Shown in pieces: positions 3,945 to 60,955 of a DNA stretch of 64,000 bases; within the stretch, counting starts at the first letter, position 1, and the number at the start of each line of letters is the position of its first letter. The notes beneath the pieces were generated by a model. The model did no database searches. It worked only from the letters and a program-made list of their open reading frames with translations, and was not told the origin of the DNA. Source of the DNA: Hydrolagus colliei. Taxonomy: Eukaryota. The DNA is taken from assembly GCA_035084275.1 (NCBI GenBank), contig CM068743.1:43772001-43836000 (forward strand), written 5' to 3'. The position numbers were made by a program, and so were the translations under genes.

Positions 3945-4192
3945 GATAAAAATAAAGTGCTTTAAAGGCTGAAAATCTGAAATGAAAAAAAATTGGATAG
4001 CATGGAAATGCACAGCAGGTCAATCAGCATCTGAAGGAGAAAAATTGTTTAAAGTTTTGTGTGAGACTATATTTTGTGACTCAGAGTCTTGTGCTCTGAT
4101 GAAGAATTCCACTTGAAATGGGAGCCTATCTTTTCCTTCCAAATATTAGTTGACCTGATTTTAATTTCCAGCTTTTTCTAGTTCTATTTCAG
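3945..4192. mobile_element. Old degenerate palindromic element related to 8990-9224 (Penelope-like terminal repeat)
   Basis: Arms cagcaggtcaa / ttgacctg and ctgaaat / atttcag; central ctctgatgaag...ttgaaat at 4094-4119. Confidence 0.5.
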
Positions 4193-4606: not shown

Positions 4607-6365
4607 ATCATAGAATCATAGAATCTTATGGCATAAAAGGAGGCCATTTGGCCTATTGAGTCTGTGCTAGCTCTTTGAAAAGAGCAATTCAATCCCACTC
4701 CCCAGCTCTCTCCCCATAACAGCACAAACCCGTCCTCCCCAAATAAGCATCTACCTCTCTTTTAAAGGTTGTTATCAAATCGGCCTCCACCACTTTTGCA
4801 GGCAATGCATTCCAGATTTGAACAACTCGCTGACTAAAAAAAATTCTCCTCACCTCCCCTCTGCTTAATAAAAAACTATTTTAAATCTGTGACCTCGAGT
4901 CACTGATACACCCACCAGTGGAACCAGTTTTTCCCTGTTTACCCTGTTGAATCCCCTCATGTTCTTCAAAACCTCTATTAGATCTCCTCGTAACCTTCTC
5001 TGCTCCAATGAGAGTAAACCTAGCCTCTCTAGCCTTTCCTTATAACTGAAGTCCCTCATTCCTGGTACCATCCTGGTAAATCTCCTCTGCACCCTTTCCA
5101 ATGCCTTAACATCCTTCCTAAAGTGTGGTGACCAGAATTGATCACAGTACTCTAGCTGAGGCCTAACCAAAGTTTTATAGCGGTTAGTCAGAACTTTCTG
5201 ACTTTTGTACTCTATTTTTCCTAACTTTGTGTCATCTGCAAACTTGGAAATGGTACTTCCTATACCCAAGTCCAGATCATTAATATAATTTAAAAGGAAC
5301 AGTGGTCCCAATCCCGATCCCTGGGAGAATCTACTGTATACTTCCCTCCAGGCAGAAAAGCAGCCGTTCACCACAACTCTCTGCTTTCTGCCTCCCAGCC
5401 AGCTCTGGATCCATGCTGCCACTGTCCCTTTACACCATGGGCTTCTATTTTCCTTATAAGCCTTTTATGTGGCACTTTGTCAAATAAACTACATCAACTG
5501 CATTACCCTCATCCACCTATTCCGTCACCTTATCAAAAAATTAAAATTTGTCAGGCAAGATTTGCCTTTTAACAAATCCGTGCTGCCTGTCCTTTATTAA
5601 CCAATATTGTTCTATCTTGTCCCTGATTATAGTCTCCAGAAGTTTCCCCACTACCGACGTTAGACTGACTGGCCTGTAGTTTCCAGGTTTGTCCTTCTGC
5701 CCCTTTTTGTGCAGGGGAGTAAGATTAGCAACCTTCCAGTCCTCTGGCACCACCCCTGTGTCCAAGGAAGATTGAAAGATTGTGGCCAGTGCCTCTGCTA
5801 TTTGCATCTGTACTTCGCTTAGTAACCTAGGATGCATCCCATCCGACCAAGTAACTTATCTACCTTGAGCGCCATCAACCATTATAGTACTTCTTCTCTG
5901 TTTATACTTATCCTATTAATTTCCTCTACCCTCTCCTCCAATACTGTGGCATTGGCTGCATACTCTTATTTTGTGAAGACACATGCACTCATTCAGTACA
6001 TTAGCCATGCCCTCTGCCTCCACAATAAGATTTCCTCCTTGGTCCCCAATTTGCCCCACCCCAACCTTTGACTAACCTTTTATTCTTGATATGCTTGTAA
6101 AATACTTTAGGGTTCCCTTTAATGTTACTCGCTAATCATTTCTCGTACAGTCTTTTTGTCCCTCTAATTTCCCTTTTCAGTTCTCTTCTGCACTTCCTAT
6201 ATTCTGTTTGGTTGTCTTCTGTATTTTGGGCATGACATTTGTCATAAGCCTCCTTTTTTTGTTTTATTTTAGTCCCAATTTCCTTAGTCATCCAGTGAGG
6301 TTTGGATGCCCTACTTTTCACCTTTGTGGGCATGTATTTGTTCTGTCACCAAACTATCTCCTCCA
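4607..6365 (-). mobile_element. 5'-truncated CR1-clade LINE
   Basis: Peptides [37 protein letters not shown] and LVRPQLEYC; 3' tail (aatcatag)n at 4607-4625. Confidence 0.95.
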
Positions 6366-8789: not shown

Positions 8790-8985
8790 TCTTTAGATAG
8801 TGCTTAAGAGCAGAAACCTTGTCCAGTTTTGCACTCCATAATCTAGGAATATTGAGCCCAATGCTGTATCTCAACTACTGTCCCAGTTGACATCAGCTAA
8901 CTCAGCAACGTCCTGGATTCAAACTTGCAAACCTCTGATCAATTAATATAGCCAAATAGATAGTATATTTACCCACCGGACCATT
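8790..8985 (-). mobile_element. LF-SINE-like ancient SINE relic
   Basis: cagttgacatcagctaactcagca...ggattcaaac resembles the reverse complement of the LF-SINE tRNA-like head and body (recognised from memory). Confidence 0.5.
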
Positions 8986-8989
8986 GCTC

Positions 8990-9224
8990 GAATAAAAACA
9001 GAGATCGCTGGGAACACTTAGTAGGTCAGGCAGCATTTATGGAGAAGGGAAAGGAGTTAATATTTCAGGTCCATGACCCTTCATCAGAATCGCTAGGGTT
9101 CTGATGAAAGGTTCTGAACTTGAAACATTGACTCACTTTCATTTCTCCATAGATGCTGCCTGACCTGCTGAATGTTCCCAACGATTTCTATTTTTATTTC
9201 CAGCATCTGCAGCATTGTGCATTT
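8990..9224. mobile_element. Palindromic Penelope-like terminal-repeat element with two hammerhead-like cores
   Basis: Inverted arms of about 100 bp (aataaaaacagagatcgctgggaacac...aggtcaggcagcat / atgctgcctgacctgctg...gttcccaacgatttctatttttatt); CTGATGA-stem-GAAA on both strands at the centre. Confidence 0.6.
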
Positions 9225-10729
9225 CTGGATTATTGAAGGAGTTGGCTATTTCTTGTTCAAAGTGTAAAGAAAGGTGAAAATGAATTGACAAGTGTTTTGT
9301 ACGGTTGGAGGCGAACAACCTTGCCAAAGTGGAGGTAAATAGTCCTGGTGAAGGTTTGGATGTTGGGTAGAAAGGACAACTGACATTTGACAACTAGGGT
9401 GTCCATTGATTCAATGGTTTCAGTTCGGTCTGCACTTGCTATAGTAATATGTTAGACATATGTTCTTTTTGTGTTCATTCCTATGCTTAACAAGCTCTCT
9501 GGAGAGAAAGCCATGTCAGTATTGCAATTTTCTTTCTACTCCTGTTCACCTGAATGATATATGATGATCTTGTACAAATTGTTTCTGGTTGTCTGCCCTA
9601 TTTATCATCCAATAACGATTCTTATTCAAAAAAAACAAAAGTTTGAATAGTTTATTAAGAAGAAGCTGGTGTGTTGCCTTATTTATGTAAAGGTGAAGTG
9701 TCATCTTCAATAACAGACTCAACTGCCTGGGATTTCCATAATTTTAAGCCATACTATCAACTGTCAAAATGTTTCACTTTGTATGTTTACAAATTTATTC
9801 TATTGAATTTCTTTCCTTACTAAGTTCTCCCAAACTCCTTTGAATGTGTCATAAAGAAATTTAAATCTCTGTGGCTTGATGTAAGCCCCATTAATCTCCA
9901 TTAATAAACTGCAATCATATGACAAGCCCCCAAATGCATTAATAATTAATTTTAATAAACTGATTGATTAACCTAGTTTGTTTGCATCATTTACCTGGGA
10001 AATTTCCCTTATTTTCTTTCCCTAACTTTCCTTTACGGTACGTGAAGTGCTTTGAGAGTGTGGTGCAAGGGGGTTATGGGAGGAGACCTAAAGGCTATGC
10101 AGATGAGAGCAACAAGTATGATCCACGTTGTGAGAGCAATGAGGAATTTGCAATGATTAGAGAAGCCACAACTCTTCTGTTTTGAGAAAAGTTGTCTCAT
10201 AGGTGACCACATAAAGCAAGAGAACCTAAGTTTAGAGTTGCAAAGGTCAATTTAAGGACAGATAATAAGATAGTTTTCATACCTAGAGGGTAATTAATAA
10301 CTGTGAAAGCTTACTCAGAAGGTTGAGGCCCGGTTGCTGGACTCATTGAAAAAAAACAGGTTGATGCTTTGATGGGAGAACATTAGAGTGGATAATATAG
10401 AATGATGAGGTCAGATGGGAGATCAGGGCCTTTTTCATCTGAACTTGTAATCGTGTGAGACATCCTCCTGATGTGAAATATAAAATTGGTGTTGCTATTG
10501 TATTTTGAAAACATTTCCAGACATTAAGATACTGGGTGTGAAAATGCAATGTTCACCAAGTAGTTTTGAAACATCAATTCCACTTTACTGTTCAGGAATT
10601 TTGAAATCACATGATTAATGTGAAATTGGTGAATATTAAATTGTGGGTCCAAAACATGCAAAGTCCACAAAAGGAGGCCAGAACCTGCTGAGAGTGGGGA
10701 GTGAACAGGTTGATATGCCATTAGCAGGT

Positions 10730-27856: not shown

Positions 27857-30353
27857 CATGTAGGAAAGGTAAAACACTAACAGTGGGTGATTTCAATCTT
27901 CACAGAATAGGAAAACCAAATTGGCAAAAGTACGTTAGAGGAAGAGTTCATTGAGTGTATGAGAGACAGCTTTCTGGAGCAGCAAGCCGAGGAACTATCT
28001 AGGGGACAGGCCATCCTAGACCTTGATTTGTGTAACGAAACAGGGCTAGTCAGCAATGTAGATATTAAAGCTCCTCTCGGGCAGAGTGATCACAACATGA
28101 TTGAATTTTGTATTAAGTTAGAGAGGTATATAGTTAAATCCGAGGCAAGTATTTTGAATTTAAATAAGTCTAATTTTGTAGGTATGAGGAAAGATCTGGG
28201 TAAAATAGACTGGAGAATCAAATTAGGAAGTAGAACAGTGGACCAACACTGGCAAATATTTATGGATGTAGTACAGAATTCCCAGAGGTTCCATATTCCC
28301 CTGCGGAATAAGAGTACCGCAGGGAAAACAATTCATCCGTGGCTAACTAGAGCAGTTAGGGAATGTATAAAATTAAAAGAAAAAGCCTATAAAACTGCTA
28401 AGAAAAGCAGCAGATCTGAGGATTTGGAGAGTTTTAAAAACCAACAAAGAATAACTAAAAAGCTAATTAAGAGTGAAAAATGGAGTATGAGGGCAAGTTA
28501 GCTAGGAACATTAAGTCAGATTGCAAAAGTTTTTATAAATATATTAAGAGGAATAGGCTAGCGAGAATAAATGTAGGTCCACTTCAGACAAAGACAGCAG
28601 AAGTTGTAAGGAGGGATAGTGATATGGGGGGAGTCCCTAAATTAATACATTGCGTCTGTCTTCACCCTAGAAGAGACAACAAGTCTGCCAACAATAGGGA
28701 TACATCAAGGGATAAATGACAGGGAGCAACTTAGGGAAATCTTCATTAGCAGAGAATTGGTGCTAGTGAAACTGATAGAACTAAAAATTGATAAATCCCT
28801 TGGTCCCTTGCAACCCAGGGTCTTAAAAGAGGTTGCTTATGAGATAATGGGGGCCTTGTGTCTGATCTTCCAAAATTCCTTGGATTCTGGAACAGTCCCC
28901 ATAGATTTGAAGATCGCACCACTATTTAAAAAGGGTGGAAAGGAAAAGATGGGGGAACATTAGGCCAGTTAGTCTGACATCGGTGATAGGAAGAATTTTA
29001 GAATCTTTGATTAAGGATGTTTTAGTGGGGTATTTAGGGGAGCATGATATAATTAGGCCATGTCAACATGGCTTTACAAAAGGGAAGTCACGTTTGACCA
29101 ATCTCATAGAATTTTTTGAGGATATTTTGAGTAAACTAGATAGGGGTGAATTAATGGATATAGTCTATTTGGACTTCCAGAAGGCATTTGATAAGGTGCT
29201 GCATAAAAGGTTGATCCAAAAGATAGGGGCCTACGGAATTGGGGGGAACATATTGATATGGATTAGGGAATGGTTAACGGGTAGGAAACAAAGAGTAGGG
29301 ATAAACGGGTCCTTCTCAGATTGGCAGGATGTGACTAGTGGAGTGCCACAAGGATCAGTCCTTGGGCCTCAGCTATTTACCATCTACATCAACGATCTAG
29401 ATAAGGACATCGAGCTTAATATATCTAAATTTGATGATGAAACAAAATTAGGAGGAAGTGTTAATACCAAGGATGACATTTAAAAAATCCAGCGCAATAT
29501 AGATAGGTTAGGTGAGTGGGCAGGTAGGTAGCAGATAAAGTATAATGTAGGGAAGTGTGAAGTCATCCACCTAGGTCACAAAAACATCAGAGCAGGTTAT
29601 TTTTTAGAGGGGGAGATATTGGAAAGTGTTAGCATGCAGAGGGACTTGGGTGTCCTTGTACAACAAACACAGAAAGTTAGTACGCAGGTGCAGCACGCAA
29701 TTAGGAAGGCTAACGGTATCTTAGCTTTCATTATGAAAGGGTTAGAGTATAAGAGTAGGGAAGTCTTGCTGCAGCTGTATAGGGCCCTGGTGAGACCACA
29801 CCTGGAATGCTGTGTGCAGTTTTGGTCTCCTTATTTATGAAAGGATGTACTTGTCTTGGAGGGAGTGCAGTGTAGGTTTACTAGGTTAGTACCTGGAATG
29901 AGGGGGATGAGTTATGATGATAGGTTGATTAATTTGGGCCTATATTCTCTGGAATATAGAAGAATTAGAGGGTATCTTATAGAAACCTATAAGATTATTA
30001 AGGGGCACGACAAAGTAGATAGTCGGGGATTGTTTCCACTTGTTGGAGAATCTAAAACCAGGGGTCACAGTCTTACAGTTAGGGGTCAGCCCTTTCACAT
30101 TGAGTTGAGAAAAAACCTCTTCACTCAGAGGGTGGTGAATGTATGGAATTCTTTACCCAAAGGGCTGTTAATTCTCCGTCCTTGAACATATTCAAGACTG
30201 AGTTAGATAGATTTCTCATTTATAAAGGGATTAAGGGACATGGGGATAAGGCAGATAGCTGGAGTTAGAGTAGAATATTAGCCATGATTGAATGGTGGGC
30301 AGGTTCGATGGGCCGAATGGCCTACTCCTGCTCCTATTTCTTATGTTCTTATG
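27857..30353 (+). mobile_element. CR1 LINE, 5'-truncated, ORF2 endonuclease end plus RT (pseudogenised)
   Basis: Peptides [51 protein letters not shown] and LVRPHLE; tail (ttcttatg)n. Confidence 0.97.
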
Positions 30354-35168: not shown

Positions 35169-35477
35169 ATAATAATAATAATAATCCTTGCATTTGACAT
35201 AGCACTTTGCATGTCTTCTAGACCTCTCAAAGCACTTTACAGAATGTACTGTAAAGTAAATTGCTGGATTATTTGTGGACTAAATGCGGCAGATAATTGT
35301 GCACAGCAGTTTCCCACAAACAGTCATGGATTGAAAATTTACCATTTTTTTTAGGAATTATTATCAGGTGTGTGGAATAAGGAAACTTGCAGAAGGTTTC
35401 GGCCTGACCTGCCTGGAATCAAACCCAGGTCTCTCGCTTGTAAGGCAAGTGCTCTAACCACTGAGCTACAGGACTTC
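35169..35477 (-). mobile_element. Full-length tRNA-derived SINE inserted in CR1
   Basis: Minus strand gtagctcagtggttagagcacttgccttacaagcgagagacctgggtttgattcc head; Deu-like core; (att)n tail; AGGAA duplicated at 35164-35168 and 35478-35482. Confidence 0.92.
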
Positions 35478-37611: not shown

Positions 37612-38880
37612 AGATACAACAATTTGTATTTATATAGCGCACTTCACACTGGATGGCATCTCAGAGCACTTCCCAATAATCGAATAGGAGGGTCACAAGG
37701 TGGTACTTCAAAGAGGCTAGGGAGGGGACAACGCAGAAGAACTGTGGGATGGAGTTCCAGAGGTTGGGGGCAGAGTGGCTGAAGGCTTGCCCGCCAATGG
37801 TGGAGCCAGTGGGTTGGGGGACGTGGAGCAGGCTGGAGGCTGCTGAGCGGAGGCGCAGGCAGGTTGGAGTTGAGTTAGGTGGTCGCAGAGGTAGGGTGGG
37901 GTGAGGCCATGGAGGGCTTCGAAGGTGAGGACCAGGATCTTGAATTGAATCCTCTGGGTGATGGGGAGCCAATGGAGTCAGGCAAGGAAGTGGGAGATGG
38001 GGTTACGAAGCTTGGAGCGGTGGAAGACACAGGCCACTGAGTTCTGGATTATCTACAGCCTATGGAGGGAGGGATTGGGAAGGCCAACAAGCAGAGTGTT
38101 GGCGTAGTTGAGCCGGGATATGATGAAGGAGTTTCAGTGACCTGAGGGGTGAGGTAGTGGCTGAATATTGCGGAGGTGAGGTAAGGCAGAGCAGGTCATT
38201 GCTTGGATATGGGGGAGGAAAGACAATTGAGGATCGAACAAGAAACTTAGGTTCCTGACTGGCTTGGTGAGGTTGAGTCTGCCTCGGTCTTGTTAACGTT
38301 CATCTGTAGAAAGTTAGCTCTCATCATTGGTTTCTGACTGGCTGTCGGTCAGGACAGCAGTAGTCCGGGAGTTGAGAGTAGAGGCATAAAAATAGAGTTG
38401 GGTGTCATCCGCATACATGTGGAAGTAGACCCCATATCTGCGGATGATGTCACCATGGAGAAGCATGTAGATATTGAAATGTACTGGGCCAAGGATAGAA
38501 TCCTGGGTGATGCCACAGGTGACAATGCGTGGGTTGGAAGAGAAGCCATTTGTGGCCACAACGTGGAGATGGTGAGAAAGGTAAGAGTCGAACCAGGCAA
38601 GGGCAGTTTCGTGAAGGTTGAGCTGAGAGGAAAGGTGGTGCAGGAGGATGCAGTGGTCGACAGTATCAAAGGCAGCAGTGAGGTCAAAGAGGATAAGGGG
38701 GCTGAGAGAGTCCTGATCAGAGATGTTTAAAATGTCATTGGAGACTTTGACCACTCCTTTCTCCATACTATGAGCAGCACGAAAGCCGGATTGTAGGAGT
38801 TTGAAGAAGGTATGGCGAGAAAGAAAGTAGTGAAGCTGGGAAGCAACAATTCATTCCAGGGTCTTAGAGAGGAATGGGAG
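37612..38880 (-). mobile_element. L2 LINE fragment (RT to 3' end)
   Basis: Peptides LPFLSKTLE, FDLTAAFDTVDH, FHMYADDTQLY and AFSHSAPNLWNS; L2 tail at 37612-37670. Confidence 0.93.
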
Positions 38881-45769: not shown

Positions 45770-48700
45770 GCCCTCCCAAATGATGACATGTTCTCATTGA
45801 GAATCTATTTCATGTGTTTATAAGTATAATAAATCACTGAGAATAATAGGATATGATAGATGTGATTTTATCATTTTAGAGTTATCAATTCTGCCTCACA
45901 TGGTTAATTATCATAGCATATGGCTTGTCATGTTATATCTTTTAAATATTTCTGTCGGTTGGATTTTTTTTCTCATAGAAAATATGTTGGTAATTCTCTG
46001 TTTAAAGTTTCTAAAATCCTTAACCTTTTGATATGTGGAAGAGAAAATAGGAGACATTTGTTTACAGCAGAACAGAAACAGTATTATGCACATAATGTTT
46101 TACTATTTTCTGTAATTGGGATACAGTATTGTGTAATTTTCTGTAACTCAATAGGATTCGCAAGCGAAGGAGCCATTAAGTAGGAGCATTTAAACATCTG
46201 AGATTTACCTTATAATGTGATCCATTGATTCTGTGCAATGCAACAAGATGCCCTTACAAAATGAGAAAATGGAAATTAATTGAAACAAAGAAAAAGAAAA
46301 AGTAATTTTAAGTCAAATACAGATACAGTTTGGAAACCCGTTGGAATGGAATAAAGCTTGATCCAACATACTCTAACCCAGGATCTCATCCTACCCCTCT
46401 ATAGACTGATTCAGAAATTCAGGTTGATAAAGTGTGGACGTGAGGAAAGCAAATTATAAAACTGTTATAAATGATTAAAAGTGACTAAATATGTAGAATG
46501 GCTAATACATAATAATAGATTTGGATGCAGCATCTCATCACATCATCCTAATGTCTCAAAGTTCACAAGATTTATAGTGACTGTGATTTTCGTCTCTGTG
46601 CTTCCCATATGGGTGTAATGCAAACTGATCATTTGACAGCTAGCACTGAGTGAAACTTTACTCCACTCAAATATTTAAACTGATAATTAGTTATACTCAA
46701 GAATGAGCAGGACTCCATGTCCCATGAGTGATTATTAGCTACCTTCAATATATTTAATGGATGTTTTACCCATTTATTGGATTAACTGGCACCTTGACAT
46801 TTGTAGACATGTGCATTTCCCTGAAATGATATAGCAGCTATTTTGTATTCATCGTTGTCAACACAAGGTGTCTAGAAACAAATGTTGTGTTATAAGATTA
46901 TTATTGAGGCCTTGAAGGATTTATCACTTGATTATTCCTGACAGTCTGTGACTATATCAAGGTAGTATCAACTAACTACCACAAGAGTGTTAAGTGAAGA
47001 ATTAATTTAAACCCATACCTTGATGTGAAGAATATCAAAATTTTCACACCATTCACACAAACTTTGAACAAATTCTTCCAACAAAAAATTGAATGCCGTA
47101 TTATATACTGTACTTAAAAATTATTTATTTTCTCCGTAAAATTGTATTTACACATTGTTTACACAACCAGCAAATAAAATCTCAAGTGCCACTGAATATT
47201 TCCACTATTACTGCAACTCAGACATTTGCACCAATTGAACTTAAAGAGTTGATTAAATTTAACACAAAATCAATTGCGTTATTTAACAGGGAGTTCAAAC
47301 TGTTGTTGTTGATACGTGCAAATATAATACCAAATTACATTTGTATAGTGCCTTTCACATCAGGATGCCATCACAAGATGCTGAACAGTCAGGGATTTGG
47401 ACCCAAGCATAGAGAGGTGGGGGAGAGTGGGAGTTGAAGTCAGGGAGGGTGGAGGGCAGAGAGAGTAGCCAGTGACTGATAACATGGTCAGAGATGAGTT
47501 TTCCCAGCTTTCTGTTTTTTTTTCAGATTTCCAGCATCTACTGTATTTTGTGTTTTATCTTTCCTCACATCCTGTTATTAATTCATAGTTTTATAACTAG
47601 TTTGATACAACCATGATGCATTAAATAAATTTCTATGCTATAATCCCTATTTAAATGGATTTATTAAACTAAAATGAATGGGTCATTCAAGTGATGAACA
47701 ATTGACAAATAATAAGCTAAAATTAATACCCAACCTAGGTATTGTTCCCTGATATTTAATTATTTGGTAATACAGTTAACAACAGCTTTGCGAATCTTGT
47801 GATCTGAATAACTGCAACTTTGAGACAAACTGTAATGGCTGTTGGTGTTCATGTTGAAAGACAAGAGAGGCAAAGAAAAAAAAATCCAAAGCTTAATAAA
47901 AACACCCATGAAGTTTGCATCTTATATCATGGAAAAAAAATAGATCTTCTGACGTGATTGTAATGTTTTAATCTCATTGTGGGATTCCAATGACTGCTAC
48001 AAACCATTTGAGCTTCACTCTTGTGAGGAACATCTGAAGTCTACAAATGGATTATTGTTGTGAATAACTACCAGATATCCACCAATACTTCACATTTCTG
48101 AATCTCTCACTGTACAAGCATTTCCATCGATGCAGGCTGATGGCACTGACAGTGAATAGTTAAATAGTTAAACAGAAGTTAGAAAATAGTGGAAATTACA
48201 CTTCAGTTGTGATGGAGTAGTGCTGTGGGGTTGAATAGGGAAGCAGCAACTCTAATAGTTATTTCTTAAGATTGAATACGTTACTGCAGTCTTTGAACAT
48301 TTGAAAGGTATATCACTTTTATTTTTCTGCATATAATAAAAGTATTTAAGATTTATGATGTCTTCCGAGTAACACTATTAGATTTTGAAACTGTAAAATT
48401 CAAATTTACGTGGCATTCCAGATCCATGCTGATGTTTATCCTGCTTTTTACAGATTTTGTTCAGATTTTGAATCTATTTTGTTTTGAACAAAATGTGATT
48501 TCTAAATGAAGTAGAAATGGAAGAATCACAAGTCACTGTACTGTGTTGATACATAAATCATTGGACTGACTGATCCTGAGGTTTCTGTGTTTGTAAACTG
48601 CCAACAGTTTGTGTTAATGATGTTTTAAAAACAATTTTCTATTTAGAAACAGACCACATCCCGCTAATAGATAAATGCACTATCTGGGTGGTAGAGTCTC

Positions 48701-53600: not shown

Positions 53601-53934
53601 TAACTCTCCCACTATCCCATTTGAAGTCAACCAGGAACTCTGCTGTATGGCTTGTCATTGACACATGTTGCATTCTACAGATCAATTCATAAATTACACA
53701 CCAATACCTCCAACAATTGTAGTCACTTAATATATAATCTGTGATTAATGAAACTCCCAAACAACAACAACTTTGATGTATACAGCGCCCTCCATGCTGG
53801 ACAGCTTCTCTGAGCGCACAAAATAGTGTAACTACATTATACCATTGTAAGTAATGCGTAAACGATCACAACCAAAACACAGATCACAGTGCAAAATAGT
53901 TTATATACCATGTCTGTGTTGTTAATGATTTAGA

Positions 53935-55111
53935 TCCTAGATTCCTACCTGACCCACCGCCTACATATTGTATCTTCCAATGGTTTCTCCTCAAACCCCT
54001 GCACAGTTTCTCACGGCGTTCCCCAGGGCTCTGTCCTCGGCACCCTCCTTTTCACCATTTATAAACTCCCTCTGGGCGATGTCATCCGCAAACATGGGGT
54101 AAATTTCCACATGTATACGGACGACACCCAGCTGTACCTTTCCGCCTCATCCCTCAACCCCCAGACCATCGATGTTCTGACAGCATGTCTGTCCGATATT
54201 GAGTCCTGGACGAGCGACAACTTCCTCCAATTGAACGTGAGCAAGACCGAGGCCCTCCTGATTGGCTCAAGCCAGCGCCTCCGCACATCGGGCGCTGCCA
54301 GCCTCAACATCCAAGGCTGTACTCTCCGCCTCACAAAGCCAGTCAGGAACCTCGGCATCACGTTCGACCATAAACTCTCCTTCCTCCCCCACATCCGTGC
54401 CTTGACCGGCACCACTTATTTCCACCTACGCAACATTGCCAGGGTCCGCAACTACCTCACCCCCCCACGCTGCTGAAACACTCGTGCATGCGTACATCAC
54501 CTCACGGCTGGACTACGGAAACTCTCTCCTCGTCGGCCTTCCCAGTTCCTCCATTCACAGGCTGCAGGTCATCCAAAACTCTGCAGCCCGTGCGCTATCC
54601 CTCACCCGCCTCCACGACCACATAACCCCCACCCTCGCCCGTCTCCACTGGCTCCCCATCCTCCAGAGGATCGAGTTCAAGATCCTCGTCCTCACCTACA
54701 AGGCCTTACACGGCCTTGCCCTCGCCTACTTAACCAAATTACTTTCCTCCTATAAGCCCACCCGGACCCTCCGTTCAGCAGGACTTGGCCTGCTCCAAGT
54801 CCCCTGCCCGAACCGCCCCACCATCCGAGGCTGGGCTTCCAGTTTCTCCGCTCCCACCCTATGGAATTCCATCCTCCAACCCCTCCGCCGTGTTTCTTCC
54901 CTTTCCTCTTTCAAGGCCGGTTTGAAGACTTTCCTCTTCGACCGTGCCTTTTGTTCCTCCCCGAACTTTTCGACCTCCCCTATGTGTTTCACCCCTTCCC
55001 GAACACTCCCCTCCCAGCTCGGGTCACACGCCTCCTGTGCAGCGCCTTGGGACGTCCTCCCGACGTGAAAGGCACTTTATAAGTTTAAGTTGTTGTTGTT
55101 GTTGTTGTTGT
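53935..55111 (+). mobile_element. Young 5'-truncated L2 LINE (RT C-terminal half)
   Basis: Peptides [39 protein letters not shown] and LHWLP; apparently one frameshift near 54460-54470 in the downstream part; many intact CpGs; (ttg)n tail 55089-55111. Confidence 0.96.
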
Positions 55112-59929: not shown

Positions 59930-60955
59930 TCATTCTGCCTTCTCTCACATTAAAAATTTGCTCATTTCTGACATAGCCTCTTCACCACCCCACCCCACAA
60001 GCTGGTGAGACTCTAATTAATACCTTAATTATTTGCAAATTAAACTATTACAATGCCCTCATTGCCAGATATCTTAGCTCATCACTATAGACTATCCCCA
60101 ATGGTGCAGCCCATGTCCTCTTCCACATTAAACTGTGCCAATCTATCACCATATCCTGGTTCAGCTCCACTGACTTAGCATCCCCCAGTGGATGAAATTA
60201 AAAATTCTCATCATCACCTTCAAATAATTCTATGGCCGCAGCGCATCCAACCTTTGCAAGCTCCTTCCACTGTACTTCTTGGACACTTCCTCCACTCAGC
60301 TAAGATTGGCCTGTATCATATACCTTACTTCTACGCCTGTCATATCCAATTGACAACTAACTCTGTGTATTCTTCAAACAGAATTAATAATCATTTCCGA
60401 AAGATGGTATCATCTCCTCACTGGTCTCCCCTCCTCCACAATCCACAAAGTCCAGCTCATTCAGAACTCTGCCACCTGCTTTCTCACCCGCACCAAACTT
60501 CGCTCCCCCATTACCCCAGTCCTTGCCAGACTTCACTGGCTCCCTATCCCAGAGAGGATCGACTTCAAGATCCTCACCTTTGTCCTCAAATCCCGCCACT
60601 CCTCTGCACCCCCTACCTCTCTGACCTCCTCTCTCCTCAAACCAGTACCCATTGCCTTCGATCGACTGGGTCTGGCCTCCTCCATGTCCCCTGAATCCTC
60701 CACTTCACCCATGGCAGCTGTGCCTTCAGCCACTATGCCCCGAAGCTCTGGAATTCCCTTCCTCACTACCTTCGCCTTGCCCCCTCTTTTCTCAGCTTCA
60801 GGTTCCAGTTGAAGACCTTTCTCTTCAACCACGGCTTTGGTCACTTTTCTACCCCTGCCCTGGCTCGGTCCCGGGATCCGCTATTGTAATGCTCTCTGAG
60901 ATGCCATCCGGCGTGGAGGGCGCTATATAAATCAAAGTTGTGGTTGTCGTTGTTT
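59930..60955 (+). mobile_element. Two tandem L2 3' fragments (old about 59930-60330; younger about 60400-60955)
   Basis: aactattacaatgccctc; cttcactggctccctatcccagagaggatcgacttcaagatcctcacc; tail gggcgctatataaatcaaagttgt. Confidence 0.85.

Follow-up and report, generated by a model that had tools for sequence, protein, structure and literature searches.

The element at positions 8990–9224 of the window, the 64,000-nt stretch of Hydrolagus colliei DNA under analysis, is read here as two copies of the hammerhead-bearing repeat (pLTR) of a Penelope-like element (PLE), joined head to head. They likely derive from one abortive insertion and would now be inert; we put the probability of this reading at about 0.8. 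Judged by sequence, the arms are almost certainly the pLTR of an abundant, endonuclease-positive PLE of the Neptune/Nematis type. For the mechanism itself, i.e. two primings followed by run-off, our confidence is moderate. The element is a minimal PLE insertion, ordinary in kind, and likely a dead stub left at this locus. Old, decayed and one among thousands, the stub matters little by itself. The family to which it belongs, however, gives countable footprints of how PLEs make inverted repeats and one-sided tails, features that are called still undefined in the relevant passages of PMC8557442.

Both the inverted arms and the two hammerhead cores are present within the 235 bases of 8990–9224 when the letters are re-read directly, and the initial annotation of this DNA, which described two divergent cores at the centre of inverted arms, read both motifs correctly. 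The arms are self-complementary over 8991–9198 (81.9 % across 210 columns, E-value 6 × 10−52), and an alignment of copies places the outer limits, 8990 and 9224, at the two ends of the repeat family. With the C of CTGA numbered +1, such that ribozyme cleavage would fall between +29 and +30, the short arm (8990–9089, minus strand) covers approximately −1 to +100 of the family, has no tail and displays 87 % identity to a solo family copy over 101 bp. The long arm (9098–9224, plus strand) covers −2 to approximately +134, lacks 7 bp where the tail begins and is 83 % identical to a solo copy across 138 columns. The arms are unequal, as the extra PLE ‘tail’ (approximately 9201–9224), defined by alignment with 24 other copies, is found on the plus arm only. 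Between the arms lies an 8-bp junction spacer (9090–9097) that is foreign to the parent element, copies of which read CCCCAG at this point, and that varies from one copy to another. Candidate copies of a decayed 14-bp target-site duplication abut the element at 8976–8989 (left) and 9225–9238 (right), agreeing at 8 of 14 letters in the register fixed by the element ends. This is not significant alone, with the best 12-mer (8/12) being reached by 11 % of random pairs when the register is free; in the family, duplication lengths peak at 13–14 bp. Against the family majority, 14 of 119 non-CpG sites are changed in the plus arm and 12 of 94 in the minus arm, so the window copy is old. Both have drifted by around 12 % at such sites, and a single one of 16 variant sites is common to the two. 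No coding remnant of the parent PLE exists within the window, and, since both copies are reduced to the repeat, no frame is left in the element.

The plus-strand core occupies 9098–9134 (C at 9101, GAAA ending at 9125), where the cut would be at 9129/9130, and the minus-strand core occupies 9053–9089 (C at 9087, GAAA ending at 9063), with a cut that would be at 9059/9058. Both are decayed minimal hammerheads, pointing away from each other on opposite strands and 14 bp apart. In the plus core the stem III palindrome is broken (ACAT) and helix II is weakened; in the minus core the ATAT palindrome is retained and helix I is down to 2 bp. A descriptor for the minimal PLE hammerhead, which specifies the core boxes, the bulge, helix II, palindromic positions 15.2–16.2 and a helix I of at least 3 bp, is consequently passed by neither, the plus core failing on ACAT and the minus core on its 2-bp helix I. 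The same descriptor is passed by 61 distinct family copies within 880,829 bases of fetched loci, a set enriched by selection, and by none in each of three shuffles, which bears out the earlier description of a minimal type I hammerhead. By the criteria of PMC4209133 the family motif is, on its sequence, a good minimal hammerhead. An Rfam scan of the window element returned no hammerhead match up to an E-value of 10.

The family majority has an ACGT palindrome and a GUU triplet, exactly as had been proposed for the ancestral stem III. The accompanying suggestion, that CpG decay had given ACAT and ATAT, holds in part: ATAT is still palindromic, but it lies two changes away from ACGT, of which CpG deamination would account for only one. 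The ancestral stem I put forward with it (agggtt/aactct) is not that of the family, which has CAGTT before the core and GACTC after it (AGUU with GACU), with G at +30 in 93 of 108 arms. In the window, AGG falls within the junction spacer and AACTC is derived. Covariation of stems I and II, offered at the outset as a check, was not found; between subfamilies these two helices show only changes of the wobble type or in the loop, in a comparison that samples a single family and thus has little power.

As the cores are on opposite strands, no transcript carries both, and each would hold one core plus the complement of the other. For the same reason, the dimer cleavage envisaged in the initial annotation cannot come from the palindrome. 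A single long hairpin is predicted for either strand (z approximately −17 to −18); the plus-strand fold has −144.5 kcal/mol and a z of −17.9, with none of 200 shuffles as good. In these predicted folds the pair probabilities for helices I and II are 0.0 within the whole element, and for the isolated cores are approximately 0.2–0.3 (plus) and 0.0 (minus). Any transcript across the window copy is therefore predicted to form a hairpin of approximately 100 bp that would bury its one sense core.

Within its own genome the repeat is abundant. A DNA search produced 80 matches from 40 scored of 4456 first-look candidates; a strict core pattern has 521 matches (control, 0), a loose one 3394 (5 for the reversed control), and patterns built from the 3′ half of two subfamilies have 763 and 2236. 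When 25 palindromic loci are aligned, following removal of five duplicates, the arm is constant, the centre is variable and the tail is one-sided. Strict short palindromes with both cores number at least 197 genome-wide (control, 0). Amongst the 50 of these that were listed the junctions vary, with only the shortest recurring, and in a separate junction comparison 10 of 10 were distinct; many of the spacers resemble short copies of the element's own 5′ bases. Thirty loci chosen by the core alone include solo arms as well as arms with inverted partners of varied length, and shared sequence continues upstream in five of the 30. Inverted partners span approximately 30 bp to 1.1 kb overall, with those in longer regions measuring approximately 1.1 kb, 415 bp and 210 bp. 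Truncated insertions grade into one another, each with a junction of its own, and the palindrome sits at one point along this range. A literature search by title and start of abstract returned no paper on this family, no shark-specific description and no account of twin priming in PLEs.

This continuum bears directly on the proposal, made in the initial annotation, of a non-autonomous fold-back family, by which the palindromes would be retrozymes that are transcribed, self-cleave and are copied as a palindromic unit. The sheer number of short palindromes with both cores speaks for it, as does the share of the window's form amongst sampled insertions (14 of 113, see below) and the report that animal retrozymes are PLE derivatives (bioRxiv 10.64898/2026.07.22.740005, in the portion drawn on here). 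The non-LTR retrozymes described in the same source are likewise non-coding, hammerhead-bearing and PLE-related. They are, however, tandem units with at least two complete motifs on the same strand, unlike the present element with its one motif per strand. Moreover, junctions are copy-specific, arms grade continuously in length, the two cores occupy opposite strands, where the predicted hairpin buries them, and the ends are not at the cut site. The proposal is already largely refuted by the diversity of junctions, and we regard it as highly improbable.

The parent of the arms becomes apparent from longer copies. In one of these (L044), the 1.4 kb upstream of the arm runs into reverse transcriptase (RT) motifs, a C-x4-C-x2-C linker and a GIY-YIG motif. 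The RT piece of this locus has 153 genome matches, and in 26 of the best 30, the query's own locus included, the arm lies in sense downstream of the RT/GIY-YIG frame. Five of those RT loci possess, in addition, an upstream arm in inverted orientation; in each the tail is confined to one side. Using the N-terminal protein sequence of a relative as query, 36 places were found and 20 were fetched; in 11 of these 20 the arm stands directly before the frame, with the ATG at approximately +169, and one tandem junction of the arm occurs at L264. Being located both downstream of the RT frame and before its start, the arm constitutes the 5′ leader as well as the 3′ end of the parent PLE, and the link to PLEs made in the initial annotation is thereby upheld. 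The longest copies contain a DKG-type motif, RT motifs, the C-x4-C-x2-C linker (L092, L094 and L095) and a GIY-YIG motif with two cysteines inside it, all read in truncated and frameshifted copies. No intact full-length parent was seen among the copies, such that the link between arm and parent rests on truncated ones. Since a CX2-5CxxC linker between RT and endonuclease defines the Neptune and Nematis clades, according to the relevant part of PMC8557442, the parent would be of Neptune/Nematis type by the linker criterion alone.

Protein comparisons are in keeping with this assignment. Relatives number 454, including shark proteins at 62–64 % identity and full-length proteins with both RT and GIY-YIG; relatives at 53–56 % identity pass the GIY-YIG cut-off. 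The relatives point to a cartilaginous fish as the probable host. In Pfam, a 517-aa frame matches RVT_1 at an E-value of 1 × 10−4, which is below the cut-off for acceptance, and GIY-YIG at 0.18; the first three ORF pieces gave nothing under an E-value of 0.06, and a PDB sequence search was likewise empty. RNA reads from another organism, in three raw runs of one sample, cover the arm in both directions about evenly, and in those runs there is no position on the arm at which many molecules begin or end. In the same runs (X2–X4), the coding part (L092:3046–4000) favours one direction by approximately 2- to 6-fold in most bins. These reads have no bearing on the window locus. Of the sequencing runs listed for a parent copy, none is of RNA.

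To view insertions irrespective of their 5′ ends, 113 were picked by their 3′ pattern. Of these, 89 are from the window's subfamily (the first on contig C1 among the 763 matches, one duplicate dropped) and 24 from the second (the first 30 loci of the 2236, six duplicates dropped). Pairs, meaning insertions with an inverted partner reaching +80 or beyond, account for 41 of the 113. The tail, taken as a 3′ end at +120 or later, is on one arm in 39 of these 41 pairs, on both in none and on neither in two. Target duplications scoring at least 9 flank 24 of 41 pairs and 14 of 64 solos, compared with 0.9 % of shuffled flank pairs; eight of the 113 were left out of this test, as their inverted match is partial. 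The duplications are 9–17 bp by score, with the peak at 13–14 bp, and the targets are AT-rich. Beyond the tail, the 113 copies share no sequence except unrelated repeats. The arms of one insertion have few private variants in common, a weak signal of 14 in 226 sites (6.2 %); shuffling gives 2.8 % on average and 6.6 % at most.

These duplications, along with the unequal arms, argue strongly against two further readings, a DNA transposon of the MITE type, bounded by terminal inverted repeats, and a hairpin adopted by the host as a microRNA. A long hairpin is certainly present, and weak matches to microRNA precursors do occur, comprising five of the seven Rfam hits of the element (the other two being snoRNAs). 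All seven, however, fall well short of their gathering scores and do no more than register the hairpin. A MITE or DNA transposon should have equal terminal inverted repeats and a short duplication of fixed length; here the outer ends are unequal by approximately 35 bp and the duplications are long and variable, thereby disposing of the DNA-transposon outcome that had been named as one to look for. In addition, the arms have drifted with hardly a variant in common, and they belong to an RT-encoding element. For the family this reading is refuted, and for the window element its chance is negligible. Annotators should be cautious nevertheless, as such hairpins are mistakable for MITEs, microRNA precursors or new retrozymes.

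With regard to the 5′ ends, 68 of 154 arms begin at −7 to +1 (7.6 per position), compared with 1.1 per position over +2 to +43 and 0.17 over −60 to −8; arm boundaries, set by local alignment, may be off by a few bases. The region of the ribozyme cut, +28 to +32, accounts for only two of the 154. Truncation at the cleavage site was considered, as two inverted arms in the RT loci begin at +29, but was rejected for want of any excess there among the 154 arms. Copies of the ORF start that reach the core behave similarly, with five of six beginning at −3 to +4. This pile-up just before the ribozyme, and not at the cut site, would fit two separately primed cDNAs, both running off the RNA at its start. 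Because the arms span the cleavage site, the template would be uncut RNA. The sequence at the pile-up resembles the initiator consensus. An internal TATA-less promoter with an initiator is described for Penelope (PMC2377424, as far as the section drawn upon goes).

The same position also looks like a splice acceptor. The template, from the same parent, might have been spliced, in which case the pile-up would mark its 3′ splice site (AG before −1) instead of the start of the RNA. Parent copies (L089, L082 and L059) do possess, at approximately −45 to −2, a branch-point-like CT(C)TAAC, a pyrimidine tract and a CAG directly before the hammerhead. The bases at −4 to −2 are C in 34, A in 42 and G in 54 of 73 cases, frequencies like those of an exon end. 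Additionally, an intron of D. virilis ends at helix I of a hammerhead, according to the relevant passage of PMC4209133. On the other side, no common upstream exon is found in spacers or solo copies, and no RNA joint falls at this position among the joints listed for another organism. Furthermore, all eight junctions from an ORF fragment to an arm restart at A(−3) or C(−4) and keep the AG, whilst none lies at a GT donor and the upstream partner does not go on with GT. Splicing is thus considered a very unlikely source of the pile-up, and run-off at the RNA start remains preferred.

Those eight copies (L262, L266, L269, L271, L274, L276, L280 and L281) each have a 3′-truncated start of the frame joined directly to a fresh arm, and in five (L269, L274, L276, L280 and L281) two hammerheads sit on the same strand, approximately 310–1120 bp apart. 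The joints look like products of template jumping; as a possible source of retrozyme-like dimers, these copies are more promising than the palindromes. In 12 of 27 non-parental cases a G stands before A(−3) (P = 0.15 against one third), forming TG in 9 of the 12; this could be a copied cap, or could result from snap-back on the complement of helix I. One pair's junction (L039:1536–1602) holds around 60 bases of an unrelated, abundant repeat, possibly via a template switch. That this spacer might be a host exon was ruled out, as it is a piece of another repeat.

The mechanism that we favour would begin with a staggered cut, approximately 13–14 bp wide, made by the element's own endonuclease. 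Each freed 3′ end would then prime reverse transcription inside the element RNA, one at approximately +100 and the other at approximately +135, and these two sites would yield one arm without the tail and one with it. Given that priming would be in the repeat near the 5′ end of the RNA, both cDNAs would run off at approximately −4 to −1 after 100–140 bases, and end joining would connect the cDNAs, leaving a few additional bases, or bases copied locally, at the junction. More specifically, and with only slightly better than even odds, a dimeric PLE enzyme would prime both strands of one 13–14 bp staggered cut at two internal sites on uncut RNA. Some of these events would end in a collision at the first site, comparable to L1 twin priming; most would proceed until the cDNA runs off at the true start of the RNA, a few bases ahead of the hammerhead. 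Four of 17 tail-bearing partners end at +87 to +102, near the other priming site, as would be expected if the cDNA met the other primer on the same RNA. In PMC11167929, a PLE protein is shown to cleave both strands and to begin reverse transcription at two internal positions that delimit the tail, working mostly from uncut RNA. These positions were determined for a Poseidon element, of another clade than the Neptune/Nematis-type parent here.

Alternatively, with the same parent, the inversion might stem from one cDNA priming itself by folding back, or from an antisense template, and endonuclease resolution would set the tail. Both components have been proposed for PLEs, self-priming in passages of PMC3846280 and endonuclease resolution in passages of PMC8557442. 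Six of the 41 junctions overlap by 3–10 bases, one locus (L121) is joined through the complement of helix I, and the spacers that look like short copies of the element's 5′ bases would also suit such an origin. Against this, 34 of the 41 junctions hold 1–61 extra bases and not a loop of parent sequence, and in four pairs one arm consists of the tail region only and the other of the short arm only, such that neither can be a fold-back copy of its partner. We therefore consider fold-back unlikely, and retain two primings with run-off as the preferred account.

The layout of an inverted truncated copy, a one-sided tail and a target duplication is already published for PLEs. Insertions of endonuclease-positive (EN+) PLEs are described with an inverted 5′-truncated copy, a one-sided tail of 30–40 bp and a target duplication (PMC8557442), and a similar layout is given for Pen2a_Av and other PLEs (PMC3846280), in the parts of these papers that deal with insertions. 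The present family matches this unit, so far as those parts describe it, in its head-to-head inverted copy, one-sided tail, heavy 5′ truncation and duplication of variable length, as well as in the C-terminal GIY-YIG and CX2-5CxxC linker of the parent. It differs in that both copies in the window element are reduced to the repeat alone, and in its duplication peak (13–14 bp versus 8–10 bp in the rotifer examples). Metazoan PLE hammerheads, as characterised in the portion of PMC4209133 used here, share with the family the CUGANGA and GAAA boxes, a single bulged nucleotide ahead of helix II, the G-C at the base of helix II, a short helix I and the palindromic 15.2–16.2; dual motifs 100–700 bp apart on opposite strands are already noted there. 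Unlike these, the window cores are 14 bp apart, have both lost defining pairs and have U at H17.

A further comparison is with the Poseidon element PAc of Anolis (PMC11167929), in which two 3′ ends bound a tail approximately 100–135 bases past the hammerhead, insertions do not start at the cleavage site and targets are AT-rich. Its frame starts inside the hammerhead, whereas the ATG of the present parent is at approximately +169, and PAc belongs to Poseidon, whilst the linker here is that of Neptune/Nematis. The passages of that study drawn on here do not address inverted products or 5′ ends, and the later steps of PLE integration are left unvalidated in it. The one-sided tail in 39 of 41 pairs, the 13–14 bp duplication and the 5′ pile-up form predictions directly testable in the published in vitro system. 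If the mechanism is true, the stubs would be a genomic record of PLE integration, explaining inverted repeats, one-sided tails and the excess of solo repeats by one model; they would also locate the start of the RNA and rule out its cleaved form as template.

Elsewhere in the window, a second head-to-head PLE stub lies at 3948–4192 and is far more decayed than that at 8990–9224; it has an inverted tail-bearing arm at 3948–4042 (73 % identity) and a hammerhead-like core on the plus strand at 4096–4118. A tail-only piece of the same pLTR repeat is found at 47495–47556 (87.5 % over 64 columns). Open stretches resembling RT remnants from other non-LTR retrotransposons are located at 4865–5464, 27911–29483, 38314–38850, 53934–55068 and 60354–60812, and a tRNA-Val-like match at 35404–35475 is possibly the head of a SINE.
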